DNA from: a virus
Length of the DNA: 64,000 bases
IMG/VR virus record: IMGVR_UViG_3300020159_001897
Span: 2,399-66,398 of that record
Direction: 5' to 3' (one strand)
The position numbers and the translations under genes were made by a program. How positions within the stretch are numbered: the first letter of the stretch is position 1; every line of letters starts with the position of its first letter. This document shows positions 33,991-56,556 of the stretch, piece by piece. The notes beneath the pieces are model-generated. The model was not told where the DNA came from, did not search any database, and saw only the letters and a list, made by a program, of their open reading frames with translations.

Positions 33991-34178
33991 TGTGGATAAC
34001 TTGCGAGGCTGTGGATAACTCAACCACTGAGAGTGTGATATATCAGCGCCGTGATATGTCGGTGATATATCAGCGGGGTTTGGGTGTCGCCGTGCGCGCG
34101 GGCGCGCCCGTGCCCCTGCGCGAAGAAAATGGTGTTCCAGACTGAATGATTTTATTTTGCGCTTCCGTTTCCTCGGGC
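33991..34178 (+). promoter_or_regulatory. Island: two DnaA boxes, two TGATATATCA palindromes, tripartite motif copy 1
   Basis: TGTGGATAA (33991, 34010); TGATATATCA (34036, 34063); GAAAATGGT-N13-TGATTTTATTT-N8-CGTTTCC (34125). Confidence 0.8.
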
Positions 34179-34595
34179 CATGTGTGCCCGCGCGCCCGTT
34201 TTGAGATTGCCCGCCGCCCTTGCGCCCTTGGCTCGACCCTCTGCGCCCTCACGCCAACGCCAGCACCCCGCGCCGCCTTTTTAGCGGAGCCTCTGCCCGC
34301 CGCCCCTGCCCTCCTCCTTCGGGGGTGTTGCTCGACGCCCTGGCGCCCTTGTTAGCCCTAGGCGCGCCCTGGGCTTCACAACTAAGCCCTAGGCGCGCCC
34401 TGGTGCGTCCTCGCGCCTACTTGCGCCCGCGTGCCCACAATACAAGCGCCACGATTAGGACGCTTGCGGTAGACACTGCAACGGCAGTACTCGCGTTGTA
34501 TATGTCAAGTGTTATCTGCATTTTTCTCCCTTCATTGGTATAAGTATATTATAGCACGCCCGCCAAGTATTTGCAACTTGACGGGCGAACTATTT

Positions 34596-34889
34596 TCAGA
34601 CGGTGACTAACTTACGCAGTCCGACTGGATAGCGCGCTACTTCGCCGTTCGCGCTGATACGGAATGAGCCCGCCGCCTCGCACGAACTCACGCCAGTCGC
34701 TTCATCGCGACTTACCAAGCGCCACACGGTGCCAGTGATACGGCAGTCCTCGTGCTGTCTGCGCGAGAGTTCCAGTGTGTAGCGGTTGCCGTCTACCTCG
34801 TAGACATTCTGCATACCCGTTGAGGCTAGGCAGATATGACGCCACGCATTGAATACCTCGTGCGCCTCACTTGTGTACGACTTGCCCAT
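34596..34889 (-). CDS. Hypothetical early protein
   Basis: GAAGGGA RBS; own promoter. Confidence 0.7.
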   Translation of the reverse strand: MGKSYTSEAHEVFNAWRHICLASTGMQNVYEVDGNRYTLELSRRQHEDCRITGTVWRLVSRDEATGVSSCEAAGSFRISANGEVARYPVGLRKLVTV

Positions 34890-35014
34890 TGTGTGTTCCC
34901 TTCATTAGGTTGGTTGTTACTAATACCATTATAGCATATCAAGTCGCGCACGACAACCCCAAATAATTATATCTTCGGGTTGCCAAATATGCGATAGTGT
35001 GCTATACTGTATAT

Positions 35015-35164
35015 ATGAACAACACACACAACTCACTCGCCAAGTGCGAGGGTGCGGACTGCACCAACCTAACCGACATCGTCCTCTGCGATACCTGCAC
35101 CGAGGACTACCTCTACGACTACGAACTCGCTCGCGAGGATAGGGCGGAGGCGCGGTTGCGCTGA
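35015..35164 (+). CDS. Small leaderless zinc-finger protein (49 aa)
   Basis: TTGCCA-N17-TATACT-N6-ATG; CEGADC...CDTC; GC hairpin after the stop. Confidence 0.7.
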   Translation: MNNTHNSLAKCEGADCTNLTDIVLCDTCTEDYLYDYELAREDRAEARLR

Positions 35165-35680
35165 CGCCAACGGCGGGCGGGGCGTGAGCCTCGCCAACCC
35201 GCGCGCCCTCCTCCCGTGATATATCAACGGCATATCACCAAACCCGCAACCCTCCTTCGCCCTGGCGCGAGCAAGCCCTCGGATAAGCCCTCAGTTAGAC
35301 AATTATTTGCGCGCTCAACACGGAGCCCTGGGTGAGCCCTCGCGACAACCCTGGGTGTGTGCGCCCGTGTCCCTCTGTGTTTTTTCTGAACGCCAACCCC
35401 GCGCGCCCTCCTGCGGATACGCCAACGCCACGCCCTGGCCCTCCTCCTTGCGGAGCCCTGGCGTGCCCTTGCGCCACCCTCGGGTGAGCCCTGGAGTGCG
35501 AAGCCCGCGCGCCTCTCCTCGGCTCTCTCCCTCGGTTGCTAGAACCTGCCTGCCCGTAGTCCCGCGAGCAAGTGTGCGATGGTCATCATCAGTCTCATTT
35601 GGTTTCCTTCCATTAGGTTATGTATATATTATAGCACGCCCCGCGAGCCTATGCAACCCGCGGGGCGACTATTTTCTAAA

Positions 35681-35923
35681 TTATTTTTTGACTGAAGCCC
35701 TCAACAATGCGTTGCGGATTTTGCCCATTCCAACCTTGTCGGAGTGTGAGCCCCAACCTTCGGATACTTGGGTCAGTTCGCCCTTGGTTAGTTCCGCCAT
35801 CAAGGTGGAGTAGTGGTAGATATGACGGGTGTTCTCGTCAATGTCTACCGCGCGCCACGATGACGCCTTGAATGAGCGCCCCGCCTTCACGGGCTTGGTT
35901 GCTAGGTCTGCTAATTTTGCCAT
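35681..35923 (-). CDS. Hypothetical early protein
   Basis: GGAAGG RBS, own promoter, W.S.SD..G motif. Confidence 0.7.
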   Translation of the reverse strand: MAKLADLATKPVKAGRSFKASSWRAVDIDENTRHIYHYSTLMAELTKGELTQVSEGWGSHSDKVGMGKIRNALLRASVKK

Positions 35924-36261
35924 TGAGTTGCCTTCCGTTCGGGGCTCGCTGGTTGCTTGCCCTTGTAATAATAGTATAGCATACTATGCCACACAATGCA
36001 ACCCAAACGGGCAGATTTTTCTAAACTATTTTGCCCTCAACGAGACGCGCCCTGGCGCCCCTCCTGCGGTGCAAGCCCTCGAACAAGCCCTCAGTTGGAC
36101 AATCCCTCGCGCTCACGCCCTGGAGCCCGTGGTGAGCCCTGGGTATCCCGCGGGGGTTGGTCGCAAAACTGCAGGGCAAGCCCTCCTGCGATTTCGTCCC
36201 CTGTTCAGGTATGCAGAAGCCCGCCCAGCGGGGGGGCTGGGCGGGCTCTGTGTTGGTCTTG

Positions 36262-36486
36262 CTACGCCGTCACTTCGGCAAGCGAACGGGCAACCGTTCC
36301 CGTGAAGGTTGGGCTAACCCAGCGCAACACAATCTTGCCTGCGATGCGGTCACGGATAACCGCTACCTTTGCGGACTTCTCCATAAAGGTCACGGCTTCG
36401 GTGAGCGTGTCAAACGACATCACCTTGACAAGTCCGCCATCGCCTTCATTGTCGTACTGCCAAGTAACTAGATACTGATTTTCCAT
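36262..36486 (-). CDS. Hypothetical early protein
   Basis: AAGGGAG RBS; TTGCAA-N17-TATACT; terminator hairpin at 36219-36248. Confidence 0.7.
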   Translation of the reverse strand: MENQYLVTWQYDNEGDGGLVKVMSFDTLTEAVTFMEKSAKVAVIRDRIAGKIVLRWVSPTFTGTVARSLAEVTA

Positions 36487-36605
36487 TTTGTTCTCCCTTG
36501 TTGTGTTGGTAATACAAGTATAGCACACTCTGCCACACTTTGCAACTCTTTTCTAAATTATTTTGCTAATTATTTTACGAAGTGGCTCCCGCCCGCCCCT
36601 TGGGG

Positions 36606-36809
36606 CTAGGACATAAAGTCCAGCGCCCTCTGCGCCCTCTGCTTCGCCCAAACCGTGCTGGCTTCCAGCGAGCCCGCGGTGTATGCGTGCCCGTAGTCCG
36701 CCACAAGTCCCGCGGGGTTCAGCCCGTCTAGGTACTCCACGATTTCCGAGAGTGCGTGTTCTAGGTCGGTGACCCTCGCCCTCAGTTGGTGTTCGGTGTA
36801 TGTTTGCAT
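36606..36809 (-). CDS. Hypothetical early protein
   Basis: GAGGGA RBS. Confidence 0.6.
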   Translation of the reverse strand: MQTYTEHQLRARVTDLEHALSEIVEYLDGLNPAGLVADYGHAYTAGSLEASTVWAKQRAQRALDFMS

Positions 36810-37061
36810 TTTGTTCCCTCTTTCCCTTTAGTAAAGTCCTCGGGCGATTTCTCGGTGCTGGTCTGCGATTTCGTCACAGAAACAATCGCAAGACCAAACC
36901 CCGCAGTCCTCGCAGGTTTGGATATCGTCCTCGGTGGTTGTGTTCGTTGTGTTTGTCATAATAATAGTATAGCACACTATGCTACACAATGCAAGCCAAT
37001 TTCCAAAGTAAATAAAACTTTTTCCGACCCGTCGCCCTTGCGCCCTCAGCCCGCGGGGCTC

Positions 37062-37241
37062 TTACAGCCAGTCCCCGCAGTTGGCGCAGATAGGGACATA
37101 CAACTTTTCCCAGTTGTCCTCGCGCCCGCCACGCCCTAGGTATGAGTGCTCAACGGTTGAGCCACAAACAACGAGTGCGCCCTCGTCGCTCACGCAATAG
37201 GCGGACAGTGTAATTTCGTGGTTGTTCAGTGTAATTGTCAT
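37062..37241 (-). CDS. Small leaderless zinc-ribbon protein
   Basis: TTGCGA-N17-TATACT immediately before the ATG; C...C...CANC. Confidence 0.6.
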   Translation of the reverse strand: MTITLNNHEITLSAYCVSDEGALVVCGSTVEHSYLGRGGREDNWEKLYVPICANCGDWL

Positions 37242-37884
37242 AAATACAGTATAGCACACTCTGTCACGCTTCGCAACTTATTTCTATATATTTTCGCTCG
37301 CCACCCTTGCGCGCCCTGCGCCACCCTGGCGCCCTCGCTTCCCGTGATAAGCCCTCAGTTAGACATTTTTTTCCACTCACTCCCTGGAGCCCTGGGACAC
37401 GGCTAATAGCCCGCGGGGTCGCCACTCCCGCGGGCTTGCGCCTTGCTTACTAGCCCTTAGTGAGGCACGCCGTTCCAGTATGGGCGTGGCTCTGAAGGCT
37501 CGTCGTACTCGTCATAACCCTCTGCTTCCAGCAATTCGTCTTCCCACCCTGGCTTCCACCCGTGGTCCAAGTCACCGTAGTTTGACATTTTGTTTCCTTT
37601 CGTTTGGTTGGTATATACAGTATAGCACTTTGTAGCACGATACGCAAATTATTCTTAGATATTTTTACCCGCGCCCTTAGCGTCCCTTGCGCCCGCGCGC
37701 CCTCGGACAAACCCTCAGTCTCGCAATTTGTTTTGCTGTCGCCCTGGAGCCCTGGGAACGCCCTGGGGCTAACCCTCGCGTTGGTCGCCCGCGTGCTCAA
37801 ACCCACCAGCCTCCGCCCGTGGGCGGGTACGCCAAAACCCAACCCGCGGGGGTGCGGGCTGGGTTGGCTCGGACTGGCTGCCGT

Positions 37885-38142
37885 CTAGCGGTAGTAAAGC
37901 CAATTCTTGCGGAAGGCTACTGCCGTGCCCTCGTAGTCGGCTTCGCTGTCGTTGCTGTATGCGCCAACCGTGACTGGTGCGATAACAAGCGTGTCGGGCG
38001 TGTCCTTCGCCGTGCGTAGCGCACGGTTGCTGGCGAGGGCATAGGTCAAGCCGTTGTCTCGGCTAACTGCCATCGTGGTTTTGGCTTGGCTTGAGTTTGT
38101 CAAGCCTGACCACTGAATATTGCTATTGCGTGCTGGTCGCAT
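37885..38142 (-). CDS. Hypothetical early protein
   Basis: GAAAGGG RBS; promoter at ~38183-38212. Confidence 0.55.
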   Translation of the reverse strand: MRPARNSNIQWSGLTNSSQAKTTMAVSRDNGLTYALASNRALRTAKDTPDTLVIAPVTVGAYSNDSEADYEGTAVAFRKNWLYYR

Positions 38143-38576
38143 ATTTCCCTTTCGCATAGGTACTTCGTTTTCCCTATATATATACTATAGCACACTCTGT
38201 CACACAACACAACCTAAAATAGAATTATTTTGGATATTCTTTTGATATATCACCGCCCTCGGCGTGGGCGAACAAGTGTTTGGGGGTCGGTTGCCGCGAT
38301 ATGCGCCCTCGTGCGATATTGTGCGAGTAAAAGTAAAATAAGCCCTCAGTCACGCAAAGTCCCGCGCGCCTCCCTCGGTGCGCCCTGGAGCGTCTAGCGA
38401 GCCCTCACGGCTTGGTCGGCGAACGCCAAAAAGTGACCCTGGCGCCCTCCCTCCCCGTGATATATCAAAGGAATATCAGTTTTTGACTTGACAAACTACC
38501 CTTGCGTAGCCTCTGCCCGCGGGGCAGGTACGCCAAAGCCCGCCCCGCGGGGGGGCGGGGCGGGCTCTCGGTCGTT

Positions 38577-38801
38577 CTAGGCGTTCGCTAGTTCTGATTT
38601 CTCAAACTCGGCGAGTTCGTTCACCATTTCGGCGATACGAATAAACATTTCCCTCTGCGCTGGTGTGTGGCTAAAGAGGGATACCGTTCCGCTAGTCGTG
38701 CCATTTTCCGATACGACTAGGCGAAGTACTGCCCAGTCCTCGTGGTCGCTAATCCGTGCCGTGAGTGTGGTGTCCTCGTTCAGCATTGCTGTGGTTTCCA
38801 T
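38577..38801 (-). CDS. Hypothetical early protein, possibly paralogous to 42908..43138
   Basis: GAAAGGA RBS; own promoter and terminator; F..TP.Q motif shared with 42908..43138. Confidence 0.7.
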   Translation of the reverse strand: METTAMLNEDTTLTARISDHEDWAVLRLVVSENGTTSGTVSLFSHTPAQREMFIRIAEMVNELAEFEKSELANA

Positions 38802-38965
38802 TGTGTTCCTTTCATTAGGTGATAATACAAGTATAGCACTTTATCGCATACCCCGCAACCTGTACGGGATATTTTTTTATTTATTTTTTGCGCCCTCGCG
38901 GAGCCTCTGCCCGCGGGGGTTCGGTTTGTCGGGCTGGTGATTAGCCAGCCCGACTACCTAACCGA

Positions 38966-39340
38966 TTAGGCTACTTGGGCAACCTTTGCCACTTTGGCTT
39001 CGGTCACTCGCACTTGGTTGTAGTGCGTAATTGTGACTACTGCCTGCTCGGTGGCTTCCGTGATTTCGCCAGCCTTGCGGGCAAGGTCAAAGGCTTTGTT
39101 ATCCACTGCCACTTTGGTCACGGCTTGGTAGGTGCTTGCGCTGATATGCTTCGCCAATTCGGCGACATCAAAGTTTCGGCGTTCTGCCGACACAAGCGCA
39201 ACGGTCACGCCGTCAATGGTCACGGACTTTTCGCCAGTCTCGGCTACTTCTGCCTCAAACTTAGCCTTTGCGCTTTCGTAGGCTTGCGTAGCAAGTTCCA
39301 CCGCACGCTTGGCGTTTATTAGGGTTTGTACTGTATTCAT
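38966..39340 (-). CDS. Hypothetical early protein
   Basis: GAAAGG RBS before MNTVQ; own promoter. Confidence 0.7.
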   Translation of the reverse strand: MNTVQTLINAKRAVELATQAYESAKAKFEAEVAETGEKSVTIDGVTVALVSAERRNFDVAELAKHISASTYQAVTKVAVDNKAFDLARKAGEITEATEQAVVTITHYNQVRVTEAKVAKVAQVA

Positions 39341-39446
39341 TAGGTACTGCCTTTCATTAGGTTCTGTCGGGCTTGTTCCCGACATATACAAGTGTAGCAT
39401 TTTCTAGCACGGCTCGCAACCTGTACGGGATAATTTCTTATTTTAT

Positions 39447-39665
39447 TTTTCCACAGACTTATCCACAGGCTGTGGATAACTTGCCCGCGGGGCTGTGGAT
39501 AACCCGCGCGCCCTGGCGCCCTCAGCCCCAGACCCTCAACCTCTACTTGAGGGTTAGGGTTTGTCTCAGACCGAACATATGTTCGCCCTTGGCCCCTCTC
39601 CGCCCTCGGAGAAAATGGTGTTCCATTTGTCTTGATTTTATTTTGCGCATCGTTTCCCTTGGGCC
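39447..39665 (+). promoter_or_regulatory. Island: DnaA-box cluster, FtsR-like site, LexA box, tripartite motif copy 2
   Basis: TTTTCCACA 39447, TTATCCACA 39459, TGTGGATAA 39471 and 39494; GACCCTCAACCTCTACTTGAGGGTT 39531; CGAACATATGTTCG 39572; motif at 39611. Confidence 0.8.
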
Positions 39666-39678
39666 CTGGGCCCGCGCG

Positions 39679-40020
39679 TCAGCAGTCCTCGTGCACCTCT
39701 CCGCCGTCTGTAATGCGCAGTACGCAGCCCTGGTGGCTTGTGAGGAATATCTGTTGCCCGATTTGCAGGTTGGTTCCGTAGGTCTCTACATTGTCGTCTA
39801 CGGCTACTTCCAGCGCACCTGTGCAGTTTGCCATCACGAGGTCGTAGATAGTGTCGCCCTCTTGCACGATATGTGGCGCAGGGTCGCAGGCGTACTGTGT
39901 CATTCGGTCATAAAAGTCGTTCCAAATGAGCAGGATAAGTGTCGTAAAGAATACCACTATGAGTGCTGTTACTAACCACTCTCGGCGTTCTAGTTGTGTT
40001 GTGTTCATTGTGTTCCTCAT
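39679..40020 (-). CDS. Membrane-anchored LysM-domain protein
   Basis: TM segment, then HIVQEGDTIYDLV...NLQIGQQIFL; leaderless start after TATAAT. Confidence 0.75.
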   Translation of the reverse strand: MRNTMNTTQLERREWLVTALIVVFFTTLILLIWNDFYDRMTQYACDPAPHIVQEGDTIYDLVMANCTGALEVAVDDNVETYGTNLQIGQQIFLTSHQGCVLRITDGGEVHEDC

Positions 40021-40032
40021 ATATATATTATA

Positions 40033-40446
40033 TCACATAATGTCTGATATTGCAACTGTTTCCCATTGCATTGTTTGTTTATTTACTATTTTTATTTTGT
40101 CTTGCTCGCTCGCGCTATCCCAACTGAACTCACAGCACGGAGTATCGCCCTCGCACGGGTGAAACCCAAAGCCTAGCGGGTTGCTTGCCACCTCTCCAAG
40201 CGAGATACCTAAACCCTTGAGCATTGACGGAAACTGACGGAATAGCGACACAGAGCAGTCGTGGCAGAACACCACACGCTCTCCTGAAGGCTTGTCCTCG
40301 TCCAGCGGAAGGTTGTCAATGAACCCTCCGTAGTACCCGAAGGTGAGAGGGAATATCTCTAGCCCGTTGTCGGGGTATCCCTCGCCCTGAAGGCGCTGTG
40401 ACGGAACCTGCTTGTTGCAGTTGTCGCATTTGGTTGTTGTTGTCAT
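40033..40446 (-). CDS. Cys-rich (Zn-binding) hypothetical protein
   Basis: CDNC, GYYGGF.D, FCHDC and HPC...CC motifs. Confidence 0.7.
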   Translation of the reverse strand: MTTTTKCDNCNKQVPSQRLQGEGYPDNGLEIFPLTFGYYGGFIDNLPLDEDKPSGERVVFCHDCSVSLFRQFPSMLKGLGISLGEVASNPLGFGFHPCEGDTPCCEFSWDSASEQDKIKIVNKQTMQWETVAISDIM

Positions 40447-40521
40447 AAATAAAAATGTCCCCTCTCCGCCCTTCGGCGGGTTAGTTGCCCGCGGGCGCTT
40501 CTCGTCCCGCGGGCTACTCCT

Positions 40522-40701
40522 TTACCGTCCCTCAATTACTCGTGGAACTTCTGCACCACAAGCCCACTCGGCGATACGACCCCACGGACGGCAGTCGCAG
40601 TGAATGCAACGGGCTTCCTCGTAGTCGTACTGGTGGCTATCTCGGTTTGCTATGCGCTGTTCTTGCGAGCCAGCGAACAACATTGGCATATCTACCTGCA
40701 T
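40522..40701 (-). CDS. Small zinc-finger protein (59 aa)
   Basis: Manual read H...CIHCDCRPWG...C; GAAGGGA RBS; own promoter. Confidence 0.6.
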   Translation of the reverse strand: MQVDMPMLFAGSQEQRIANRDSHQYDYEEARCIHCDCRPWGRIAEWACGAEVPRVIEGR

Positions 40702-41090
40702 TGGGTTTCCCTTCGTTTGTTTGGTACTATTATATTATATCACGCTCTAGGCGGAATTGCAACCTTGCTCGTAGTAATCTGTTCCTAGATAATCTAAGGC
40801 GCAGGTGTTGCAGACCAGTTCTTTGGTATGCGGGTCTTTGTAGTCCTCGTCCTCGCCAACGCCCCACGGCGCTGTGCAGATTGAGCAGACCCTCTGCTGG
40901 CTAATCATCTAGCCAGTCGTCAAGGTCGCCCCATTCCTCAAGTGTCGGGGCTGGCTTGCGCTTGCCCTGAATGGTTGAGGCACGAAGTCTGTCTCCGTCA
41001 CGGAAGGCTTGGCGGTCTGCCTCGCCCCACGCTTTGTGGTTTTGGTTTTTCATTGTTTTTCCCATAAGTATATTATAGCACCCTTTCTTG

Positions 41091-41282
41091 CTAATTGCAA
41101 CTATTTATTTCTATTTCATTTGTCGGCAACCAGCCGAACCAGTCGGTACGCATTGAGTGAACCAGTATCCAGCCCTGCTTGTTTCCGTTCATCTCGTGCG
41201 TGAACTCAGTGCCGTTTTCCTTTACCCTGTTCCTCGTGCGCCGTGTGGCGTTGCTGTTTGCTGTAATTGTTATTGTTTCCAT
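41091..41282 (-). CDS. Small leaderless early protein
   Basis: TTGCAA-N17-TATAAT directly before the ATG; RTRNRVKENG...WFGWLP. Confidence 0.65.
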   Translation of the reverse strand: METITITANSNATRRTRNRVKENGTEFTHEMNGNKQGWILVHSMRTDWFGWLPTNEIEINSCN

Positions 41283-41352
41283 AAGTATATTATACCACAC
41301 TCTCTTACACTTTGCAACACGCCAGCAGAAGCCCGCGCGTCCCCTGTTGCCC

Positions 41353-41526
41353 TCACTCCTCGTAGTCAAGCCACCACGGTTCGTCAAACGCGCCCTCGTC
41401 GTCCATTTGGGCGTACAGTTCGGCGTTTAGCGCATTGAGTGAACGCACCTTTACGATTTCGCTTAGAGGTACTACCCTCGCGCGGAATGCTTCGGTGATG
41501 TATCTAATTGCTTGTGCTTCGGTCAT
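41353..41526 (-). CDS. Small early protein with a structured 5' leader
   Basis: GAAAGGA RBS; 58-nt three-way junction upstream. Confidence 0.6.
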   Translation of the reverse strand: MTEAQAIRYITEAFRARVVPLSEIVKVRSLNALNAELYAQMDDEGAFDEPWWLDYEE

Positions 41527-41851
41527 TTTGTTTCCTTTCATTGAGTTGGTACTAGGTGGCGCCGACGCTTACGACACTCTTACTCGGTTATCATTGCGAA
41601 CCTAGTAATACTATTATAGCATAGCCCGCGAGGCTTTGCAACCCCGCGGGCTAAGTTTTTTACCAGCCGTAACGCTCGGCGTCTTTTTCGGCTTGCACTT
41701 CCGCCTCAAACTCTCGGCGCTGAGATGCCGTTGCTGGCATTCCCCAACCCTCAAGGTAGGCGTCTTTGGCGGCGTCGTGCCCGTCGTCGCTGTCTCTGTA
41801 TCTTGGGTTCATTTTTTCTCCTTGTGTTTGTAACTTACTATTATATTATAC

Positions 41852-41893
41852 CATAGCCTGCGAGGCTTTGCAACCTCGCAGGCTAAGTTTTTT
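41852..41893 (-). repeat. 42-bp promoter-in-hairpin repeat (exact copies at 41852, 42587 and 43186)
   Basis: CATAGCCTGCGAGGCTTTGCAACCTCGCAGGCTAAGTTTTTT; on the minus strand TTGCAA-N17-TATAAT, with the -35 in the hairpin loop. Confidence 0.9.
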
Positions 41894-41896
41894 AGA

Positions 41897-42480: not shown

Positions 42481-42632
42481 ACTCAAAGCCAAACCCTGGC
42501 GCCCTCAGCCCCCGCCGAACACCTTCTCCCCTCTTTCCGTGCCCCCGCTGGCACTGCTCGTCTATTTCCTTATATATATATTATAGCATAGCCTGCGAGG
42601 CTTTGCAACCTCGCAGGCTAAGTTTTTTATAT

Positions 42633-43138: not shown

Positions 43139-43226
43139 TGGTTTTGCCTTTCGTTTGTTGGGTTGTTCTTACTATTATATTATACCATAGCCTGCGAGGC
43201 TTTGCAACCTCGCAGGCTAAGTTTTT

Positions 43227-43436
43227 TTAGTCTTGGGATAGGTCTAATTCTTCTTCCCACTCGTGTCCGCACTCGTTGCAGAGGTTGGTCACCTCAACAT
43301 AGCGACCCATAACGACATCTTCGTACTGCTCTGTCGTTTCGTCACACTTCGGGCAAGTGGCTTCCCACTCGTACACCGTTGTATCGGGGAAGTCGCTTAG
43401 TCGTGTTCCCGCTGGATAGTTGTCCATATAACCCAT
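43227..43436 (-). CDS. Zinc-ribbon protein
   Basis: CPKC...CNECGHEW; GAAAGGA RBS. Confidence 0.7.
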   Translation of the reverse strand: MGYMDNYPAGTRLSDFPDTTVYEWEATCPKCDETTEQYEDVVMGRYVEVTNLCNECGHEWEEELDLSQD

Positions 43437-44378: not shown

Positions 44379-44505
44379 TGATATATCACGGCGAGGTTAC
44401 TGGCTGGTAAGCGAACACTTGTTCGCCCTCACCCTGGCCCCTCTCCGTGAGAAAATGGTAAGAATAACTAAATGATTTTATTTAGTGCGCTCCGTTTCCT
44501 CGGGC
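44379..44505 (+). promoter_or_regulatory. Island: TGATATATCA, LexA box, tripartite motif copy 3
   Basis: TGATATATCA 44379; CGAACACTTGTTCG 44412; motif at 44451. Confidence 0.8.
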
Positions 44506-47109: not shown

Positions 47110-47275
47110 TGATATATCACAGTGACCCGTGCGCCCTGGCCCCCACGCCTAAACCTAAAGTAGAGGTTGAGGGTTTATCTCAGGTAGAGGTTGAGGGTTA
47201 TATATGCCCCTCTCCGTAGAGAAAATGGTAAGAAGAACTGATTGATTTTATTTCGCGCTACCGTTTCCCTTGGGC
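47110..47275 (+). promoter_or_regulatory. Island: TGATATATCA, two tandem FtsR-like sites, tripartite motif copy 4
   Basis: TGATATATCA 47110; AAACCTAAAGTAGAGGTTGAGGGTT 47151 and a variant at 47175; motif at 47221. Confidence 0.8.
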
Positions 47276-47481
47276 TACTCGAGCCCGCGCCACGCAGTTG
47301 CTGAACGACGCGCCAGCCTCGCAGTAAAGCAAGGGAATGGTGTGCCGCAGTAAATGCAGTGTGGGTCTTTCCCGCCATCTGTTGAGTGCGGTGCCGACAT
47401 CATATGAATCGTTGACTGCAGTCTGTTGATTACAATGTCTCTTGGGTCTACTTCAATATAATTTTCTTCGTTGTCTTCCAT
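47275..47481 (-). CDS. Small zinc-finger protein
   Basis: H...CIYCG.PFPC; AGGAG RBS. Confidence 0.65.
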   Translation of the reverse strand: MEDNEENYIEVDPRDIVINRLQSTIHMMSAPHSTDGGKDPHCIYCGTPFPCFTARLARRSATAWRGLE

Positions 47482-48782: not shown

Positions 48783-48955
48783 TGGTTTCTCCTTTGTTGT
48801 CATTGGGTATGTATATATTATATCAGGTTGTGCAGGCGATTGCAACCTCTGCTAAAAGATTTTATTTCGCCGTCCCCTACCCCTGCCGCATTTTTTCAAA
48901 TTTGGCGGGCGGGCTATCGGGCCCGACAGTTTCCCATCGGGCCCGACCGCTAGTG

Positions 48956-49996
48956 CTACAGGCTCGCTAGAGCCTGCAACACTTTCGTATCTGCCGTACC
49001 AGTAGAACCGCTAAGAGCGTTGAGCATATTGCGCTCTACTCGGTTCTTGTCAGTGCCAGCCTTGTGATGGTTGTAGGTGTTGTAAGCCTGCAACACTCCC
49101 AACGCTGAACCCTTCCACGGTGCTACTCGCATATCGTTAGCGTAGAGGTCTTTCAACGCCCAACGCTTATTCTCTGCACGAGTGATTGCCGTCTTCATTT
49201 CAAGGTCGGTCGGTACTGGTACTAACTGGTTGAGCAGTGTGTTCCACTGTTCGTCCGTTACTTTCCATTCCGACAACTTTGTAATCTCTGCGATTACATC
49301 GTCAGTCATTTTGTGAATAATTCCAAGCGCATCACGAGCCGATTGAATTTTCAATGCGCTGTGCTTTGAGTGGCGAGCCTTGAATTGCTCTCCATCTTCG
49401 CCCATCGCCATTGAGTGTGTGTTGTCGCAGACCACGAAGGTAGAAACCTTCTTGTAGGTCGTTGCCAATGTCCCAATGTGGCTAGTTGTTGCAAGTAAGT
49501 GCGGACGAACCTTGAAGCCGTCAATGACTTCAATGCTTTCGGGCATTTCAAGCGACACCCAAGCAACTCCGCCATTCTTCAACAAGCCTGCAGAACCGAT
49601 TGCCAACTCGTCATCTACGAGGTTTGCGAGGTTCTTTACGAGCCAGTCGTTGTACTGGTGGATTGCGTAGCCATCTTTGAAGATTTCAAACAGGTCGTTT
49701 GTGTCATCTCGCAGGATTGCTTTACGGTTTTCAGCCTTGATGAACTTGACGGGATTTCCGTTTTCGTCCACGCTGGTTGCATCGTCCATCGTTGCTGGCA
49801 CTTGAATGAACACTGGGGCTTCTTGTGCCGACCAAGCGAACAGCCTGCGCTGTACATCTTCAACAGGGATTGCTCCTGCATAATGGTTCGGCTCATCGCC
49901 TTGTGCATCTTTCTTGTAGTGCCACGCATTTCCACGCTGGTCGGTCATACCAACCAAAATCTGCGTGTTGTACCACTCGGTAGTTTCCATTCCCAT
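48956..49996 (-). CDS. DUF932 / TIGR03299-family phage-plasmid protein
   Basis: AWH, SAG.L..G...W, LL..TSH.G, VVCDNT and G...G..QA motifs. Confidence 0.85.
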   Translation of the reverse strand: MGMETTEWYNTQILVGMTDQRGNAWHYKKDAQGDEPNHYAGAIPVEDVQRRLFAWSAQEAPVFIQVPATMDDATSVDENGNPVKFIKAENRKAILRDDTNDLFEIFKDGYAIHQYNDWLVKNLANLVDDELAIGSAGLLKNGGVAWVSLEMPESIEVIDGFKVRPHLLATTSHIGTLATTYKKVSTFVVCDNTHSMAMGEDGEQFKARHSKHSALKIQSARDALGIIHKMTDDVIAEITKLSEWKVTDEQWNTLLNQLVPVPTDLEMKTAITRAENKRWALKDLYANDMRVAPWKGSALGVLQAYNTYNHHKAGTDKNRVERNMLNALSGSTGTADTKVLQALASL

Positions 49997-50169
49997 TTTA
50001 TTGCTCCTTTGTTAGTTTGTTGTTTGATTACTTACTGATACTATTGTATCACTTTATCGCAGGCTTTGCAACCCGTACAGAAGGTTTTTTTTATTTCTTC
50101 TCGATAACTTGATAATTCAATTCTATCGGGACATTGCCAAAACACCAACCTCAAAATAAAATTATCGGG

Positions 50170-50307
50170 TGATATATCACGGCTTAGTGCTAAATAGACC
50201 CGCGCGTCCCCTGTGGTTATTGTCTTTCAACTGTTTTGTTCCCTGCCCGAGGAAAATGGTGTTCCAGAGTAATTGATTTTATTTTCGCACTCCGTTTCCC
50301 TTGGGGC
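50170..50307 (+). promoter_or_regulatory. Island: TGATATATCA and tripartite motif copy 5
   Basis: TGATATATCA 50170; motif at 50252. Confidence 0.8.
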
Positions 50308-50324
50308 TGGTGCCCTGGCGCACA

Positions 50325-50369
50325 AATAAAAAAGACCCAGCCTAGTAATGGGGGTGACTAGGCTGGGCC
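50325..50369 (-). terminator. Intrinsic terminator with an oligo-C loop
   Basis: 13-bp stem, loop CACCCCCAUU, then a U-tract. Confidence 0.8.
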
Positions 50370-50411
50370 GCGCAGATGGCTCACAAAGGAGATTAAGGAG
50401 CCATCGCGAAC

Positions 50412-50687
50412 TTAAACAAATTTATCGCATTCTGTACAGAAGTCTGGAACTAACTCAGAGTCTGATTTAAAGATAACTTTTGGGAACTTGTCTGAGTCGA
50501 ATGACCACTCATTTTCCCTATCTACTTTTAAATCATCTGCCAGCAGGTCGAGCATGTCTTCCGTCGACTGTGACTTGAGAGTCTTGTCGATAAATCCATC
50601 CAGGTACATCTTGCGACGTAGGCACTTAGGGCAGAATGTTTCCGCCTTAAATACATACCCTGTGATTTCATCGAATGTCTTCAACAA
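50412..50687 (-). CDS. Zn-binding hypothetical protein
   Basis: FCPKC...FDSD.FPKVIF...C..C; start uncertain. Confidence 0.6.
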   Translation of the reverse strand: MLKTFDEITGYVFKAETFCPKCLRRKMYLDGFIDKTLKSQSTEDMLDLLADDLKVDRENEWSFDSDKFPKVIFKSDSELVPDFCTECDKFV

Positions 50688-50910
50688 GTAGCATCCTTTC
50701 AAAGGCACGGGTTGCCGCCGCTGGGAACTCTGGCAGTGCACTTACGGGCCAAAGCGATTCGAGAGCATGAATGCTCATTGCCTCTTCTCGTCCGCAGTCA
50801 GAACATACTTCTGTTTTATTGTCGACTCTAGAGATTGCTCCAGGGTATCGACCAGGCGTCAGGTTGCTCGGAATATATCCTTGGCACCGCGGGCACACAG
50901 GAGCGTTCAC
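50668..50910 (-). CDS. Zinc-finger protein
   Basis: CPRC...GA.SR.DN.TE.CS.CG..EA. Confidence 0.7.
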   Translation of the reverse strand: MNAPVCPRCQGYIPSNLTPGRYPGAISRVDNKTEVCSDCGREEAMSIHALESLWPVSALPEFPAAATRAFERMLLVEDIR

Positions 50911-51101
50911 GAGGGCTTCCTAAACGCTGTTGGGTGTGCTGCACGGGAGCGTTCTTGTTTGCGCTTCCTAGAGGCTCCTAGAGGGCTTAGAAGGGACTTC
51001 AGTATTCTGTTCGGTTTCATTTGTTTCTCCTTTGTTGTTGAGTTAGTTATTACATATTCAAGTATATCAGTTATTTGCTTCTTTGGCAACTTTAGTTGCG
51101 C

Positions 51102-51226
51102 GGTTAAGGTGTGGTTAAGGGACGGTTATATGTACGGTTATGGGTGACAGTATGCCACCCCTAGAGGTGACAAATTGCCACTGGGGGGTGACAGTATGCC
51201 ACTAGGGGGGTGTCAGGATGTCACCT
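51102..51226. repeat. Iteron-like array: four ~22-bp units plus four phased GGTTA
   Basis: GTG(A/T)CA-N3-TG(C/T)CAC at 51144, 51167, 51188 and 51210. Confidence 0.8.
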
Positions 51227-51587
51227 CAGAGTCGCCTTCATCTTCTTCAAAATGCTTTGAACTTCCGCTATTCAAGAGCCTTTGTGCCCTTAAAATAAGA
51301 CTTCGTTCACGGGCTGACTTGCCACCCCATATTCCGAATCGTTCTGATGACTCTAATGCTGATTCTAAACAATCGTGTCTTACCACGCACTCCTTGCAAA
51401 TGCTTTTGGCGCGCCTTAACTTCTCTACATCGCCAGGGGCGGGATAGAAAGTAGTTGTCGGTTCATCTTTGCAGTTAGCCTGCTTTGTCCATGCTGGTCG
51501 TTCGATACGGAAACCCGTACCTGACTCCCACTCTGTTTGGGCATAGCGTTGCTTGGGCGCACGGTAAGAATCCCAAGGGCTAGACAT
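51213..51587 (-). CDS. whiB: WhiB-family Fe-S transcription regulator
   Basis: W...A.C, AK.IC..C.V...CL..AL and GIWGG.S..ER motifs. Confidence 0.92.
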   Translation of the reverse strand: MSSPWDSYRAPKQRYAQTEWESGTGFRIERPAWTKQANCKDEPTTTFYPAPGDVEKLRRAKSICKECVVRHDCLESALESSERFGIWGGKSARERSLILRAQRLLNSGSSKHFEEDEGDSEVTS

Positions 51588-51645
51588 AGTTGCAGAATAT
51601 ACAACATCCTGCTACCCATGTCTAGTACCTAATAATTATTTATTC

Positions 51646-53260
51646 TTACCAAACAATTATGTCTGTCCGCTTGTTGTTTGTTAAGTCGTCTACGCCGAAA
51701 CTACCCATCTCGATGAGTTCGTCTACCGTGTACAACTGCAACATAGCCTTAAAGTTTTCTACTGCCGCTTGTGGTGTAGGTGCTTCGGTATCGTGTTCCT
51801 GCATAAATTCCATATAAACTCTATAGTGATTCATTACTTGCCTCCATAATCATTTTGTTAAATAGTTCTACAACTTCTTCTTCGTTCTCCTCAAACTTCC
51901 CGTCACCGAGATAGCCCGACTCAAACTCTGAATTATCGTTGTTCCAAATCATTCGGTTGCCGAACATTGCCTGTTCGGTTTCCACATCGTGCACCCACCT
52001 GCCAGTGTTGCTGTCAAAGTAGGTGACGAAGTAATACTGTTTATTATTCTGCTTCATCAGTAGCCTTCTTCGTCGTCGTCGTCGTACCAGCCGTCATCAT
52101 CTTGTGCGCCTTGCGGAATAAGCGACTTGAAGCCAGCGTTCGGGTCTTCATTATTCGTCTCCACCGACTGAACAAAGCGAAGTGGGCACGAGTCTTCCCA
52201 CCAGTGCTTTATCTTTGTCAACATTTCCTGTGTTGAGCCAGTGAAGTTGCATGAAGTACTGCACTCTTTTTCGTTGTAGTTATTTCTAAACCACTCCGCT
52301 TGCTCCAAGTCCATCGCAAGATAAATCTTGTGACAGCCATCAAAAGCAATTAGTTCTGCATACTGAATCGCATCTTCTACGTCGCTCCAGTAATCTTCCA
52401 TTGTTGTTGTAGCCATTAGTTTCTCCTTTGTTATTGTGTTACTTACATTGTATCAGTTTCTTCGTCTGTTTCCTCAATAAAAGGAACAGAAACCAATAAA
52501 ACTTCTACTGACTGGTCTGTATCTACCGCCCCGTCAACAATTGGATATGCAAATGCCTTTAGGACACCGTGCTCATTAATATAATAATTAATATCAATGT
52601 AGTCGTTGTATGAGTCCCACTCATCGTGCTCTAGGTGATAGTTGCCTAGACCCATTGCGTGGAGCAGTACCATCGAACCACACTTTGTCTTTGCGTGGCG
52701 GATAATGTCATCCAACTGGAACATCACAACGCCAAGTTTCTTGGCTTCGTTATATAAATCTTTTTCTAGTACTTGCATTGCCATTAGAAGTCTCCTTTTT
52801 CATAAATTACATAGTTTAAAATTTCCCATATTTTTGTATTAATGTGTTCGTACCCTTCATTGTTGTCAAAGTCCTCTACGGCTTTTAACCACTGTTCGTC
52901 AGAGCACGGATTGTTATCGGCATCATAAAATAATTCCTTACCCCACCAAGAAGCACATATCTCCTCATCTTTCGGGTAACGCTCCAACATTCTGATTACT
53001 TCCCAAACTTTCATTGTGTTCTCCTAACCTATTCCTAAAATAAGATACGGCTTTAGTTGGTCTTGTGTCATTACTGCTGTCCAGTGTTCTACTTCAGAAA
53101 CATCCCACGGTTTATCCCACGGAAGTACCTGAATATCAATAATGTCCTCGTAGATGTGGTCGCCACTATCCACCAACGCCTGTGCTTCCTCTAGGCTGTT
53201 GGCATCAACTTGATAAGTGATTGCTACATCAACTGATTGTTGTATTAAATATTGTTTCAT
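51646..53260 (-). other. Operon of six small acidic hypothetical CDS (51646..51834, 51821..52057, 52057..52416, 52443..52784, 52784..53014, 53024..53260)
   Basis: Co-oriented, overlapping or abutting ORFs, most with an AGGAG-type RBS. Confidence 0.7.
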
Positions 53261-53350
53261 TAGTTTCTCCTTTGTTTAGTTTTGAATAGTGGGACAGTCA
53301 CCCCGACAGTGACTGCCCCACTACATCTAGTTTATCAGCATTATTGAATA

Positions 53351-53815
53351 TTACCAACTCGACTGATACTTGAAACTCCAAGTATCGTCCATCTTCAAGC
53401 ACTTATCAATAATTTCGATAGTGCTCTCGACATCTTGCCAGTACCACTCATCGAACTCGGTAGAGCCGAAGAAGAAGCCCGACTGTGTGGGCAACAATGC
53501 TTCTGCTTTATCCTTTTCTTTGAGTGCCAACTTGCAGAGGTCACGAAGTTCCATCAACTTGTCACGGTCTACATAGTATTCCGCACAGTTATCTTCACCA
53601 CCCTGCACATTTTTGACGAACCAAGCGTGAACCTGATTTGCCTTGCGCCAGTATCCGACCTTTAGGTCAATATTGATTGACGGCAATTCTGTATCAACAA
53701 ACTTTTCACCGTCAATAGCGGTCAAAATATCGTTGAATATCTTGCGGTCTGCTTCGCCACGCCACTCGGCGTTGCTTGTGTACTTACTTGCGTATAGATA
53801 TTGGTCTAATCCCAT
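53351..53815 (-). CDS. Conserved phage protein (MGLD...YWRKAN..H.WF...LP...GFFFG...Y.SSW family)
   Basis: Characteristic motif string; AAGGAG RBS; own promoter. Confidence 0.8.
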   Translation of the reverse strand: MGLDQYLYASKYTSNAEWRGEADRKIFNDILTAIDGEKFVDTELPSINIDLKVGYWRKANQVHAWFVKNVQGGEDNCAEYYVDRDKLMELRDLCKLALKEKDKAEALLPTQSGFFFGSTEFDEWYWQDVESTIEIIDKCLKMDDTWSFKYQSSW

Positions 53816-53883
53816 TGTGTTCTCCTTTGTTAAGTTGTTTATTGTGTTGTATCTATTATAGCACGGATATTCTTGAATTGCAA

Positions 53884-54132
53884 CTATAAAGTGCTGAAAT
53901 AATCTGCGTTGAACAGTCCAGCCATGTAGGTTGCTTGTCCGACTATTTCTAAAGTATCCCATTGAATAATATTTCCGCAGTCAAAGCAGACATAGATATC
54001 TTTCCAGTCGCCATCAGGCTCTCGGATTACTCCGTTCTGGTGGCACGGATAGAAACCTGACGAGGCAGGCGTGTTGCCACACTTGCACTCAAACCAGTCT
54101 GGGTTTCCACCGATAAATTGTTTTTCTTCCAT
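53884..54132 (-). CDS. Zinc-ribbon protein
   Basis: C.CGN.P...GF.PC...C..CG. Confidence 0.7.
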   Translation of the reverse strand: MEEKQFIGGNPDWFECKCGNTPASSGFYPCHQNGVIREPDGDWKDIYVCFDCGNIIQWDTLEIVGQATYMAGLFNADYFSTL

Positions 54133-54202
54133 TAGGTTCTCCTTTGTAATTGCGTTACTTCAAGTATACACGAATATTGCACAAAGCGGGCGGATTTGTT
54201 TG

Positions 54203-54324
54203 TGATATATCAGACGGTAAAATAAAAGAACACCACATCTACTGGGTGGGTTGTCCCCTCTCCAGCGAGAATATGGTGTTCCAAAACGAATGATTTTATT
54301 TAGTGCTGCCGTTTCCCTCGGGCC
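54203..54324 (+). promoter_or_regulatory. Island: TGATATATCA and tripartite motif copy 6
   Basis: TGATATATCA 54203; GAATATGGT-N13-TGATTTTATTT-N8-CGTTTCC at 54269. Confidence 0.8.
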
Positions 54325-54572
54325 TAGACCCGCGCGAGGAAAGAGGTGCCTCCCATTTCTGCAATCGAAGTGGCAAACAGTTCTTGCAGGTCGCGGAACC
54401 TTATCGAGACATTCTCCAGAATAAAATTACTGTCGAACATCCAGGCTCCACTGCAATTCCTCCCCTCCGAAATAGCGACGAGTGCGTCGACATCCATCGC
54501 GCGCAACAACGCCGCTAGTTCTATGCAGGACTCGAAGGTTGGCATCCGAGCGGATAATTTGAGTGGCTGCAT
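54324..54572 (-). CDS. Hypothetical protein
   Basis: GGAG RBS. Confidence 0.5.
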   Translation of the reverse strand: MQPLKLSARMPTFESCIELAALLRAMDVDALVAISEGRNCSGAWMFDSNFILENVSIRFRDLQELFATSIAEMGGTSFLARV

Positions 54573-54609
54573 GTCTCCATACTGCCACTTTAAATCGTAT
54601 AGTTTTTAA

Positions 54610-54849
54610 CTATCCGACCCAGCGCCCGAACACTGTGTAGCCTTCGCCCTCGCTGCGAACCAACCACTCGGTTCCAGGGTAACGCTTTTTATATTGCTGC
54701 GCCTTTGAGTGACCCGTGCGCGCAGTATTGCCTGCACTGTACACAGCCCATGTGTTAGGACTTGCCATCAGTTGTTCTACGAACTTACGAACCTGACCTG
54801 GCGAGCCGTTTTTTGGCGTTGGTGGATTGCGAAATTCTATCGCTGTCAT
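54610..54849 (-). CDS. Hypothetical protein
   Basis: L...P..WA...V..R..G pattern; AGGAG RBS; own promoter. Confidence 0.7.
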   Translation of the reverse strand: MTAIEFRNPPTPKNGSPGQVRKFVEQLMASPNTWAVYSAGNTARTGHSKAQQYKKRYPGTEWLVRSEGEGYTVFGRWVG

Positions 54850-54923
54850 TGTATTCTCCTATTATTGTTGGTTTATTGAGTATTGCTTATTACACTGTAC
54901 ATGCTGATATATCAGATTGCAAC

Positions 54924-55388
54924 CTAGAAGGGAAGATTATCCCACTTTCCTTCGCGCTCACAATCAAATACATTTACTCCTAACGAGGTATACATCTCGC
55001 GCGTGCGATTGTTTGACTCGATAGCAAAATATTGTTTAGGGTTATCTCCGTACATCGGAAATACTTTTTCAAGTACTTGCTTCTTTTTTACCAGAGGTGC
55101 TTCCGAGCCAGAAATGCCAGTGTCATTGAACATTGCATGGTTCGGCGACCACTGGTTTGTGTCCCAGATTCGCTTCAAGGTTGGGCGCGCCCACTTCTGG
55201 TCACGAGCGGTAATTAGAATTACATACTCGTCACGAAGCAGGTCGACCATCCAGTCGCGATACTCCTCGACTTCCTTGACAAAGGTCTCGAAGTTGTGAT
55301 GACGCATTTCTTTAAAATTACTTGACAGCGCGACATTCAAATCCATGAGGATAATCCTGTCGATATGCTTGCGTCGCTTCTGTTCCAT
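54924..55388 (-). CDS. HAD-fold protein (PNKP-phosphatase-like, degenerate motif I)
   Basis: IILMDLN, LITAR, K and AIESN motifs. Confidence 0.55.
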   Translation of the reverse strand: MEQKRRKHIDRIILMDLNVALSSNFKEMRHHNFETFVKEVEEYRDWMVDLLRDEYVILITARDQKWARPTLKRIWDTNQWSPNHAMFNDTGISGSEAPLVKKKQVLEKVFPMYGDNPKQYFAIESNNRTREMYTSLGVNVFDCEREGKWDNLPF

Positions 55389-55741
55389 TATTTTATTCTA
55401 CCTTGTCTTTTTTGCCTGTTGTTATAAGTTCCATCTCCACAACTCTCGTTGAGTGTTTTTCTGGATTATTGCACGTCGGCGGGTAGGTGGAACTAATCGT
55501 TCCAGCCGTCACCCCGCAAACCGCGCACTTCCAGTTGTATGGCATCTTGCTCACCAGTCGTTTCCTCCGTCATATCCGTATGCTCCGCCTTGTAGCAGAA
55601 TTCCAGTAAGAAGATACTCCATACTGCTCATTCCGTGCACACACATGTCGCATACCATAGAGCCGTCTTCAAATTCGTAGACAGTCATGGCTGGCATGCA
55701 GCATGTATCGCACTCGATGTAATGCTTACTTTGTAGGTGAG

Positions 55742-56056
55742 TTACGGTGTATGACCCGAGTTGTGTTGCCTGATTACGGTTGTTACGGGGCCGTTTTTTA
55801 CGCTTCCGTTCCATTGTTTGTTGTAACTCCTTGCAATTTGACTAGGGCTTGCGCCACCGATGTATCTGTACCAACCCAAGATGTGCTTTAGCATTGTCAA
55901 CGACGCTCTCACGAACGCTAAGACAAAGAAAAAAGCAAATAGTTGTGGGTTTTGGTCGGCGAACATCAATCCGACGAGCATCAGCGTGCCCACCTGAAGG
56001 AATGTTCCAATTCCTGGCATTGTCCAAATAAGAAACTGTTTACTTAGATATTTCAT
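55742..56056 (-). CDS. Membrane protein
   Basis: Two TM segments; GGAG RBS. Confidence 0.6.
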   Translation of the reverse strand: MKYLSKQFLIWTMPGIGTFLQVGTLMLVGLMFADQNPQLFAFFFVLAFVRASLTMLKHILGWYRYIGGASPSQIARSYNKQWNGSVKNGPVTTVIRQHNSGHTP

Positions 56057-56358
56057 ATTTCTCCATTATGTTAGGTCTCCGAGTGTACAGGTTGCATCTT
56101 TCTGTCACAACCTGCTATCCGTAATATATCAGAGATTCCCGTAGAACTCACTAAAACTATTCCAGTTTTCGTCGTCCTCTTGGTCGAGTCCGTTCTTTAG
56201 ACACCAGTAGGCATATGCATCCATTTTTAATTTCATTTCAGCAACTGCTTCTGGCGAAACATTAAACATAACTATATCCATTATTCACCTCCTTCATTGG
56301 GTTGACTTCAGTATACCAGCCCAATCGCACATTCACAACATTGTGCGTAATATTTCGG

Positions 56359-56556
56359 TGATATATCACAGACTATAATATTAAATAAATGCGCTTTGCC
56401 CACCGTCTGGATAGATTTGTCCCCTGCACCCTGAGAAAATGGTGTTCCAGATGCCATGATTTAATTTTGCTTTTTCTGGCTTTAATCTGGGGGCGGCCGA
56501 AGAAAATGGTGTTCCATCGGCTGTGATTTAATTTACTCGCCGCCCGTTTCCTTAGA
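56359..56556 (+). promoter_or_regulatory. Last island: TGATATATCA and tandem tripartite motif copies 7 (partial) and 8
   Basis: TGATATATCA 56359; motifs at 56435 and 56502. Confidence 0.8.

Follow-up and report, generated by a model that had tools for sequence, protein, structure and literature searches.

The DNA analysed here, referred to as the window, comprises 64,000 nucleotides (nt) of an uncultured freshwater phage, positions 2,399 to 66,398 of IMG/VR record IMGVR_UViG_3300020159_001897. The source record counts 66,398 bases and was estimated by CheckV to be 59% complete, the same estimate as for the record of a relative, G002. Nearly all genes are carried on the minus strand. Tail fibre, major head protein, portal and large terminase were recognised with PHROGs and Pfam between 1 and 29 kb of the window, and a long series of small open reading frames (ORFs), mostly without a family name, fills the region from about 32.5 to 58.1 kb; the structural genes and these small ORFs are all on the minus strand. 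Within this early region a gene for a WhiB-like protein is located at 51213-51587 (PHROGs/Pfam), which points to an actinobacterial host. The subject of this analysis is a motif of two rigidly spaced boxes and a looser third one, present in eight copies in the early region and first noticed in an inspection of the bare letters (the original prediction).

The pattern ATGGT-N13-TGATTTWATTT occurred eight times in the window, at 34129, 39615, 44455, 47225, 50256, 54273, 56439 and 56506, each time on the plus strand, and was absent from the minus strand. Shuffling the window 100 times with preservation of dinucleotides gave a mean of 0.00 copies, and a scan of the full 66,398-base record returned the same eight copies and no further ones, with none in the sequence read backwards as a control. 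The eight copies in one orientation of the original prediction were thus confirmed, each at its place. Because the genes lie on the opposite strand, the motif is to be read reverse-complemented. In gene direction its consensus is RRGRAACGG-N7..12-AAAATAAA-N-Y-C-N14-ACCATWTTCT, from box 3 over box 2 to box 1, with a G-rich run after it, for example GGAGAGGGG or GGCAGGGG. The spacer between boxes 1 and 2 measures 13 base pairs (bp) in all eight copies and varies in sequence, starting with GTTCCA in six and with AAGAA in two, as had been described. Box 3 (CGTTTCC) follows box 2 at 7–10 nt in seven of the eight copies and is absent at 56439; the longer form proposed for it, CGTTTCC(C)T(C/T)GGGC, held except for its tail in two copies, which reads GGGG for GGGC at 50293-50306 and TTAGACC at 56545-56557. 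The C-rich stretch reported to lie just upstream on the plus strand, CCCCT(CTCC) or CCCCTGC, was present in six of the eight. Every copy is situated between minus-strand ORFs or abuts a stop codon, in agreement with the intergenic placement first claimed. The stop codon of the upstream gene precedes the copy by 7–110 nt in seven cases and by about 420 nt in the remaining one (c1 below), and the next start codon lies 130–320 nt beyond the copies in gene direction. The copies are listed below with their orthologues in relatives, which are designated by L and G numbers.

c1, 34124..34178, minus strand: GCCCGAGGAAACGG, 8 nt, AAAATAAAATCA, spacer and ACCATTTTCT in gene direction; nhmmer E-value 2.6e-18; orthologues in L128 (G002) and L129 (G001)
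c2, 39610..39664, minus strand: found by pattern scan and nhmmer; orthologue L130:16913
c3, 44450..44505, minus strand: second spacer type, with TTCTT and not TGGAAC before ACCAT; orthologues L130:13123 and L131:13673, in which this spacer type is kept
c4, 47220..47275, minus strand: second spacer type; box 3 abuts the stop codon of ORF 47275-47481; orthologues L130:10284 and L131:10438
c5, 50251..50306, minus strand: box 1 reads ACCATTTTCC; orthologues L130:7252 and L131:7334
c6, 54268..54323, minus strand: the sole window copy with ACCATATTCT; orthologues L130:3235 and L131:2497
c7, 56434..56467, minus strand: downstream member of a tandem pair, with boxes 2 and 1 only; ATTAAAGCCAG where box 3 is expected; box 2 reads AAATTAAATCA
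c8, 56501..56557, minus strand: upstream member of the tandem pair, 67 bp from c7

Tandem pairs built like c7/c8 were also found in L130 (971/1038), L131 (192/265) and L160. Box 3 is variably spaced and dispensable: it is missing from the downstream tandem member, except in L174, where the pair is reversed and the copy without box 3 is the upstream member.

The pattern of the first viral scan was too loose and gave at least 112 single chance matches. With tight patterns the motif was retrieved from only four further IMG/VR contigs and from 45 metagenome loci, seven of which (L150, L152, L153, L154, L155, L168 and L187) are AT-rich, have no flanking features and were dropped as chance. The 38 metagenome loci kept contributed, after exact de-duplication, to a set of 49 unique copies. 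Numbered from the A of ACCAT, the bases A-24 to A-22, T-21, A-19, A-18, C-15, ACCAT (0–4), T6 and T7 are present in 49/49, an invariance that is partly search-made since the collecting pattern already fixes AAAT[AT]AA-N17-ACCAT. C8 was found in 48/49 and T9 in 46/49; C-15, T6, T7, C8 and T9 are conserved although the pattern left them free. When a gap of 10–25 nt between AAATWAA and ACCATWTT was allowed in the window and related loci (279,480 bases), 66 matches had a gap of 17 nt and two a gap of 23 nt, the latter being the same copy counted from an overlapping AAATAAA. Likewise, nhmmer, which permits gaps, aligned all L130 and L131 copies gap-free, and every match in the relatives was on the gene strand. 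The sequence of the spacer varies among copies and among orthologues and the spacing stays rigid; orthologous copies, whose spacer length had been put forward as a test of the original prediction, always kept the 17-nt gap between AAATWAA and ACCAT.

A copy is present at each orthologous position, tandem doublet included, in both L130 (85–90% identity to the window) and L131 (75–80%). For 35 of the 41 unique copies from outside the window both flanks could be placed in the window, and in 33 of these 35 the two flanks of a copy fell on one and the same window locus, the exceptions being L147 and L174_202; the motif is not a hot spot of block shuffling. Some features of the window copies are lost in the relatives, namely the TGA of box 2, the TAAAAT on the minus strand and the TGGAAC before ACCAT. 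The TGA closes a plus-strand mini-ORF (ATG, five codons, TGA) seen in 8/8 window copies, and a coding function was rejected on account of its loss from copies of the L130 and L131 types. The W within box 1 is T in seven of the eight window copies, A in 7/7 copies of L130 and T in all copies of L131. That six orthologous sites changed independently is very unlikely, which leaves two explanations: the copies track a phage-encoded reader, or they convert one another. In L129 (G001) the orthologue of c1 at 1535-1595 has the flanks of c1 and the exact spacer of c2, a short-patch conversion, by its sequence, between copies 5.5 kb apart, so that conversion certainly happens at least once. Given this case, a phage-encoded reader is put forward here as probable rather than as a result. 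No copy of the motif and no equivalent repeat was found in the more distant L132 (54% identity in a DUF932 protein), which carries only canonical promoters of its own, with a GTGACA-N4-TGTCAC operator. A megablast search of the motif region against the INPHARED phages gave no match. The two motif-specific 15-mers did not occur in the literature searched; two 11-mers alone matched, in 87 papers, of which the ten listed have unrelated titles, and word searches on intergenic motifs of actinophages returned no description of the motif.

Several identities were rejected. RNAalifold predicted no pairs across 40 copies, and Rfam and tRNA scans of the window gave no matches; a structured RNA element (nut/put, RNase III site or Rfam family) was discarded for want of a conserved fold or an Rfam match. 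A match to a host repeat, which the original prediction had itself proposed to look for, did not emerge from a scan of one genome per species in about 186,000 prokaryote species: the 68 matches are single and scattered, mostly in AT-rich unrelated taxa, with no title naming an actinobacterium, and their number is of the order expected by chance (our estimate of about 17 assumes even base composition). A host repeat or regulon was therefore discarded as well. The view of the motif as a DNA-level site read by a protein is strengthened by the missing RNA fold, the rigid spacing with a free spacer and the absence from host-type genomes. The more specific idea of a multimeric protein on one helix face gained no support; the two invariant blocks are unlike each other, with centres about 26 bp apart. 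We take the motif to be a cis-acting DNA signal between early gene blocks, aligned with the direction of transcription and confined to a narrow phage lineage; its anatomy, spacing, strand, placement and absence from hosts were directly established. Record scan and nhmmer detected no copy in the structural gene arm or late genes, so that the motif does not form a late promoter class.

Canonical promoters of the sigma-70/sigma-A type were sought as TTGACA- and TATAAT-like hexamers 16–18 bp apart, with at least nine of 12 matches and with A2 and T6 in the -10. Two scans returned 29 sites against 9.2 expected (23 on the minus strand) and 37 against 18.9 expected (28 on the minus strand). The typical promoter of the early region is TTGCAA-17-TATAAT with an upstream TG, on the minus strand. 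None of the sites of either scan overlaps any of the eight motif copies on either strand, which bears out the earlier claim that the motif has no sigma-70 -10/-35 and makes it a second, distinct signal class. A -10-like TAAAAT within box 2 on the minus strand is present in six of the eight window copies; as a -10 it was rejected, since relatives carry TAAACC, TAAAAC or TAAATC there. Between 34548 and 54000 on the minus strand, more than 20 near-consensus extended -10 promoters were observed, each followed by AAGGAGA and a start codon. Hairpins near the motif are irregular. A strong one directly upstream was found at two of the seven loci, c5 (z -4.4) and c3 (z -3.1), that of c5 being an intrinsic terminator of -24.1 kcal/mol (z -4.43, 0/200 shuffles folding as well). 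A small hairpin before box 3 was considered as a part of the motif and dropped: at five of the seven loci shuffled sequences fold as well (z -0.8 to +1.0), and it is weak or absent in many relatives.

50324..50369, minus strand: strong intrinsic terminator directly upstream of c5, with a 13-bp stem and a U run

Past the motif, towards the next gene, lie a TGATATATCA palindrome and, in some copies, a LexA-like box, with one or two canonical promoters after these. The palindromes and LexA-like boxes linked to copies in the window are the following, distances being counted past ACCAT.

34036..34072: two TGATATATCA palindromes, 61 and 88 nt past ACCAT of c1
39572..39585: LexA-like box CGAACATATGTTCG, a perfect CGAAC-N4-GTTCG, starting 34 nt past the A of ACCAT of c2
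44379..44388: TGATATATCA palindrome, 71 nt past ACCAT of c3
44412..44425: LexA-like box CGAACACTTGTTCG, a perfect palindrome, 34 nt past ACCAT of c3
47110..47119: TGATATATCA palindrome, 110 nt past ACCAT of c4
50170..50179: TGATATATCA palindrome, 81 nt past ACCAT of c5
54203..54212: TGATATATCA palindrome, 65 nt past ACCAT of c6
56359..56368: TGATATATCA palindrome, 75 nt past ACCAT of c7

The TGATATATCA palindrome looks like a putative operator of some regulator. It lies within 260 nt downstream in 38 of the 49 unique copies, mostly 61–111 nt past ACCAT. The window as a whole holds twelve exact copies (starts at 34036, 34063, 35217, 38243, 38458, 43539, 44379, 47110, 50170, 54203, 54905 and 56359), against 1.8 expected even when one mismatch is allowed, often followed by a half-site; seven of the twelve, at six loci, are downstream of a motif copy. 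The sequence CGAAC-N4-GTTCG, which we take to be the LexA box of Gram-positive and actinobacterial hosts, was found within 260 nt past ACCAT in 14/49 copies, starting at 29–37 nt in 13 of them and at 55 nt in L186. These boxes are placed 64–150 bp upstream of the next canonical -35. A third perfect palindrome of this kind in the window is located at 32271-32284, and the three boxes suggest that part of the early region responds to the SOS state of the host.

Two unlike boxes at one rigid distance are the geometry demanded by a sigma-type reader, and we infer from it a promoter role, a transcription start position and the kind of reader involved. In this reading, to which we give a probability of roughly 0.4, the motif is a non-canonical leftward promoter with sigma-like two-box geometry, used with the help of a putative, probably phage-encoded factor; a phage-specific promoter was already among the roles listed by the original prediction. 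CATWTT would be a weak -10, with A at -11 and T at -7, and AAAATAAA-N-Y-C at -39 to -29 would stand in place of a -35 hexamer. Transcription would start about 7 nt beyond the -10, at the conserved G opening the G-rich run. As the site has no sigma-A consensus, the host RNA polymerase would be unable to use it alone and would be directed there by the putative factor. The motif would then give each block a promoter of a second class, ahead of its canonical ones. A repressor bound at the LexA-like boxes, just past the predicted start, would block the motif promoter; at their distance from the canonical promoters the boxes could not repress those. The A(-11) and T(-7) of CATWTT are present in 49/49 copies, which is necessary for a sigma-70 promoter but not sufficient, and the predicted start (+14 from the A of ACCAT) is a G in 38/49, opening the G-rich run. 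Tandem doublets are common among phage early promoters, and the doublet is kept in the window, L130, L131, L160 and L174.

Phage-directed promoter classes on host RNA polymerase include the middle promoters of T4 (MotA/AsiA) and of SPO1 (gp28). As in these, the host consensus gives way in the motif to two unlike boxes a fixed distance apart, and the sites are repeated, co-oriented and lineage-specific. In contrast to them, the motif has CAnnnT instead of TAnnnT as its -10-like box and an A-tract as its upstream box, Pfam and PHROGs detected no protein resembling MotA, AsiA or a sigma factor, the presumed host is an actinobacterium, and canonical promoters lie between the motif and the distant genes. 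A T7-like single-subunit polymerase does not fit as the reader: the motif consists of two blocks about 14 free positions apart and not of one contiguous block of about 20 bp through the start, and no gene for such a polymerase was found among 120 window ORFs and 36 of the 37 ORFs of the left 42 kb of G002 (one, crossing the locus border, was skipped), with about 8 kb of the genome possibly unseen. It is doubtful, but conceivable, that this lineage, having no recognised polymerase or sigma factor, retargets the host RNA polymerase through a putative protein to the AAAATAAA-N-Y-C-N14-ACCATWTTCT class, gated by LexA in some copies; this would be an actinobacterial counterpart of the sigma appropriation of T4, derived from metagenomes alone.

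Several points speak against a leftward promoter. CATWTT has no T at -12, and neither hexamer passes the sigma-70 consensus scan. Across about 104 kb of the phage and G002, no gene for a phage RNA polymerase, a sigma factor or an activator was recognised, although both records are incomplete and a polymerase or sigma gene may lie in the remainder; neither Pfam at E-values up to 1 (25 ORFs) nor sequence searches of the PDB (three ORFs) revealed anything sigma-like. G002 (L126, L128) is about 90% identical to the window across the structural genes and supplies 42 kb more on the far side, with tail genes, ParB-like proteins, an O-like replication initiator and a SNF2 helicase. The sole recognisable transcription factor is the WhiB-like protein, presumably, judging by its family, a candidate sigma-4 binder. 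It does not co-vary with the motif: 124/124 residues are identical between the window and L130 although the motif variants differ, for which reason it was rejected as the specificity reader. Canonical promoters are already in place downstream in each block, RNA from the motif would have a leader of 130–320 nt, and the motif is much nearer to the upstream stop codon than to the next start codon. The late genes have no copies. The genome-wide switch of W could stem from gene conversion and not from a co-evolving reader, given the c1 orthologue with a c2 spacer in L129. No transcript 5' end was observed; the RNA-derived sequences, from one metatranscriptome and two doubtful RNA runs, are contigs, which carry no start, end or strand information.

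The main rival to a leftward promoter is a polar roadblock or insulator, at which a phage DNA-binding protein in the manner of a stoperator repressor would stop or gate polymerase coming from the upstream block; we regard it as unlikely. The stoperators of cluster A mycobacteriophages are 13-mers, present more than 20 times on both genome arms and serving also as operators at the early promoter, and PMC9283540 describes them as asymmetric, intergenic and orientation-dependent. The motif shares with them its asymmetry, its actinophage setting, the short intergenic gaps behind the upstream stop codon (c1 apart) and an orientation tied to transcription, all copies being aligned with it; its lineage-specific variants are as expected of a site co-evolving with its binding protein, and the LexA-like boxes together with the ParB-like genes of G002 hint at a non-lytic phase. 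Its core, however, is bipartite and about 35 bp long with a third box in addition, and the eight copies are restricted to the early region, leaving the structural gene arm empty. No integrase or repressor was recognised by Pfam and PHROGs, many early ORFs having no family at all, and no copy sits on a canonical promoter, whereas stoperator-type sites double as operators. A promoter pointing the other way is quite improbable. In that case TATTTT, the reverse complement of AAAATA, would be a -10 and ATGGT the upstream box of a rightward antisense promoter that runs back into the 3' end of the block before it and shuts that block off. The -10 consensus of actinobacteria is TAnnnT, which TATTTT fits in 34/49 copies, the motif does adjoin the 3' end of the upstream gene, and the variably spaced box 3 would become the 5' end of the RNA. 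The would-be T(-7), at position -25, is nevertheless T in 34, A in 11 and C in four of the 49, there is no credible plus-strand gene downstream, and the LexA-like boxes and the G-rich run would fall upstream, where they would be unexplained.

It is very improbable that the copies are sites where a phage nickase cuts one strand of the virion DNA, as happens in T5, phiKMV-like phages and phage tf. The motif resembles such sites in its strict confinement to one strand and in variants specific to each phage lineage, and the phiKMV-group consensus CGACxxxxxCCTA/CTCCGG, also on the non-coding strand, likewise has a free internal spacer (PMC3517423). Known nick consensuses, though, are much shorter (7–20 bp) and have no link to gene boundaries or operators, whereas the motif is strictly intergenic, found only in the early region and accompanied, at preferred offsets, by operator-like elements; Pfam and PHROGs scans recognised no nickase or HNH gene. 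Nothing in the motif anatomy appears specifically to favour the nicking, packaging or ejection-pause roles. A signal on the minus-strand transcript, linear or locally structured, for antitermination or processing (nut/put or RNase III type) has an equally small chance. It would fit the co-orientation with the genes and the strong hairpins upstream of c5 and c3, but RNAalifold and Rfam found nothing, the hairpins before box 3 are mostly no more stable than shuffles, and the motif, being upstream of the canonical promoters of its own block, is outside those transcripts. Least probable of all is a recombination substrate, a boundary cassette for the gain and loss of gene blocks like the PeSLs of T4-type phages, which are small repeated cassettes of a stem-loop and a canonical early promoter marking indel boundaries (PMC4122927). 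Like these, the motif is a small repeated intergenic cassette between blocks of a variable early region, sometimes beside a stem-loop; one short-patch conversion is documented in L129, and one DNA contig of run X9 connects the edge upstream of c3 with the flank upstream of c5. Apparent joints between copies in sequencing-run contigs were mostly paralogues assigned to the wrong copy. Unlike PeSLs, the motif has no canonical promoter and does not mark indel boundaries: the placed copies are each syntenic with a single window locus in 33/35 cases, and the window and L130 diverge at breakpoints near the canonical promoter/hairpin repeats and not at the motif. Recombination alone would also leave the invariant bases at rigid spacing unexplained. 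PeSLs are matched better by the TTGCAA-17-TATAAT/hairpin repeats of this phage, in which the -35 lies in the hairpin loop. Three 60-nt copies of such a repeat, at 41834-41893, 42569-42628 and 43168-43227, are 92–100% identical, two of them fully, with the -35 TTGCAA in the loop of a 12-bp hairpin. Taken together, the motif works most like phage-specific promoters or stoperators, yet for every family open to testing it lacks defining features.

Gene regulation in the abundant uncultured freshwater actinobacterial phages is essentially uncharted, and the early region of this phage has two signal classes, textbook extended -10 promoters on the one hand and a stricter, lineage-specific bipartite motif on the other. 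Should the motif prove to be a promoter, a phage factor must redirect the host polymerase, and this factor would offer a new way into actinobacterial transcription; should it be a polar roadblock, the stoperator principle would hold outside the mycobacteriophages as well, with another architecture of the site. The motif also has practical use as a marker: a single pattern retrieved this phage lineage from public metagenomes with few false matches.

Some further features of the early region were noted. Seven exact copies of TTATCCACA, presumably the DnaA-box consensus, occur in the window against 0.55 expected, in three clusters at 32241-32260, 33991-34018 and 39459-39502. Two clusters are downstream of c1 and c2, and one adjoins the LexA-like box at 32271. 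Because the phage has no polymerase gene and a relative carries an O-like initiator, the clusters may represent an origin or a DnaA-titrating region. Between 34000 and 42000 the G+C content is 51–58% against about 45% elsewhere, long ORFs are few and promoters many, and an 88-nt repeat family is present at 35246, 36046, 37310 and 37670.

An 88-residue ORF on the minus strand (57162-57428) has a hydrophobic N-terminal helix and a Lys/Ala/Pro-rich tail resembling that of histone H1 or actinobacterial HU. Possible auxiliary genes were found at 60048-63865 of the window (subtilase, thioredoxin, 4Fe-4S ferredoxin and a protein of a PHROG 'ferredoxin' family) and in G002 (L126: tryptophan halogenase, 2OG-Fe(II) oxygenase, glycosyltransferase and HAD hydrolase). 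The independently assembled contigs of L130, L131, L156, L159, L160, L174 and L188 all stop 100–1000 bp upstream of the c8/c7 pair, corresponding to about 56700-57500 of the window; these shared ends may reflect a hypervariable stretch or a physical end of the genome.

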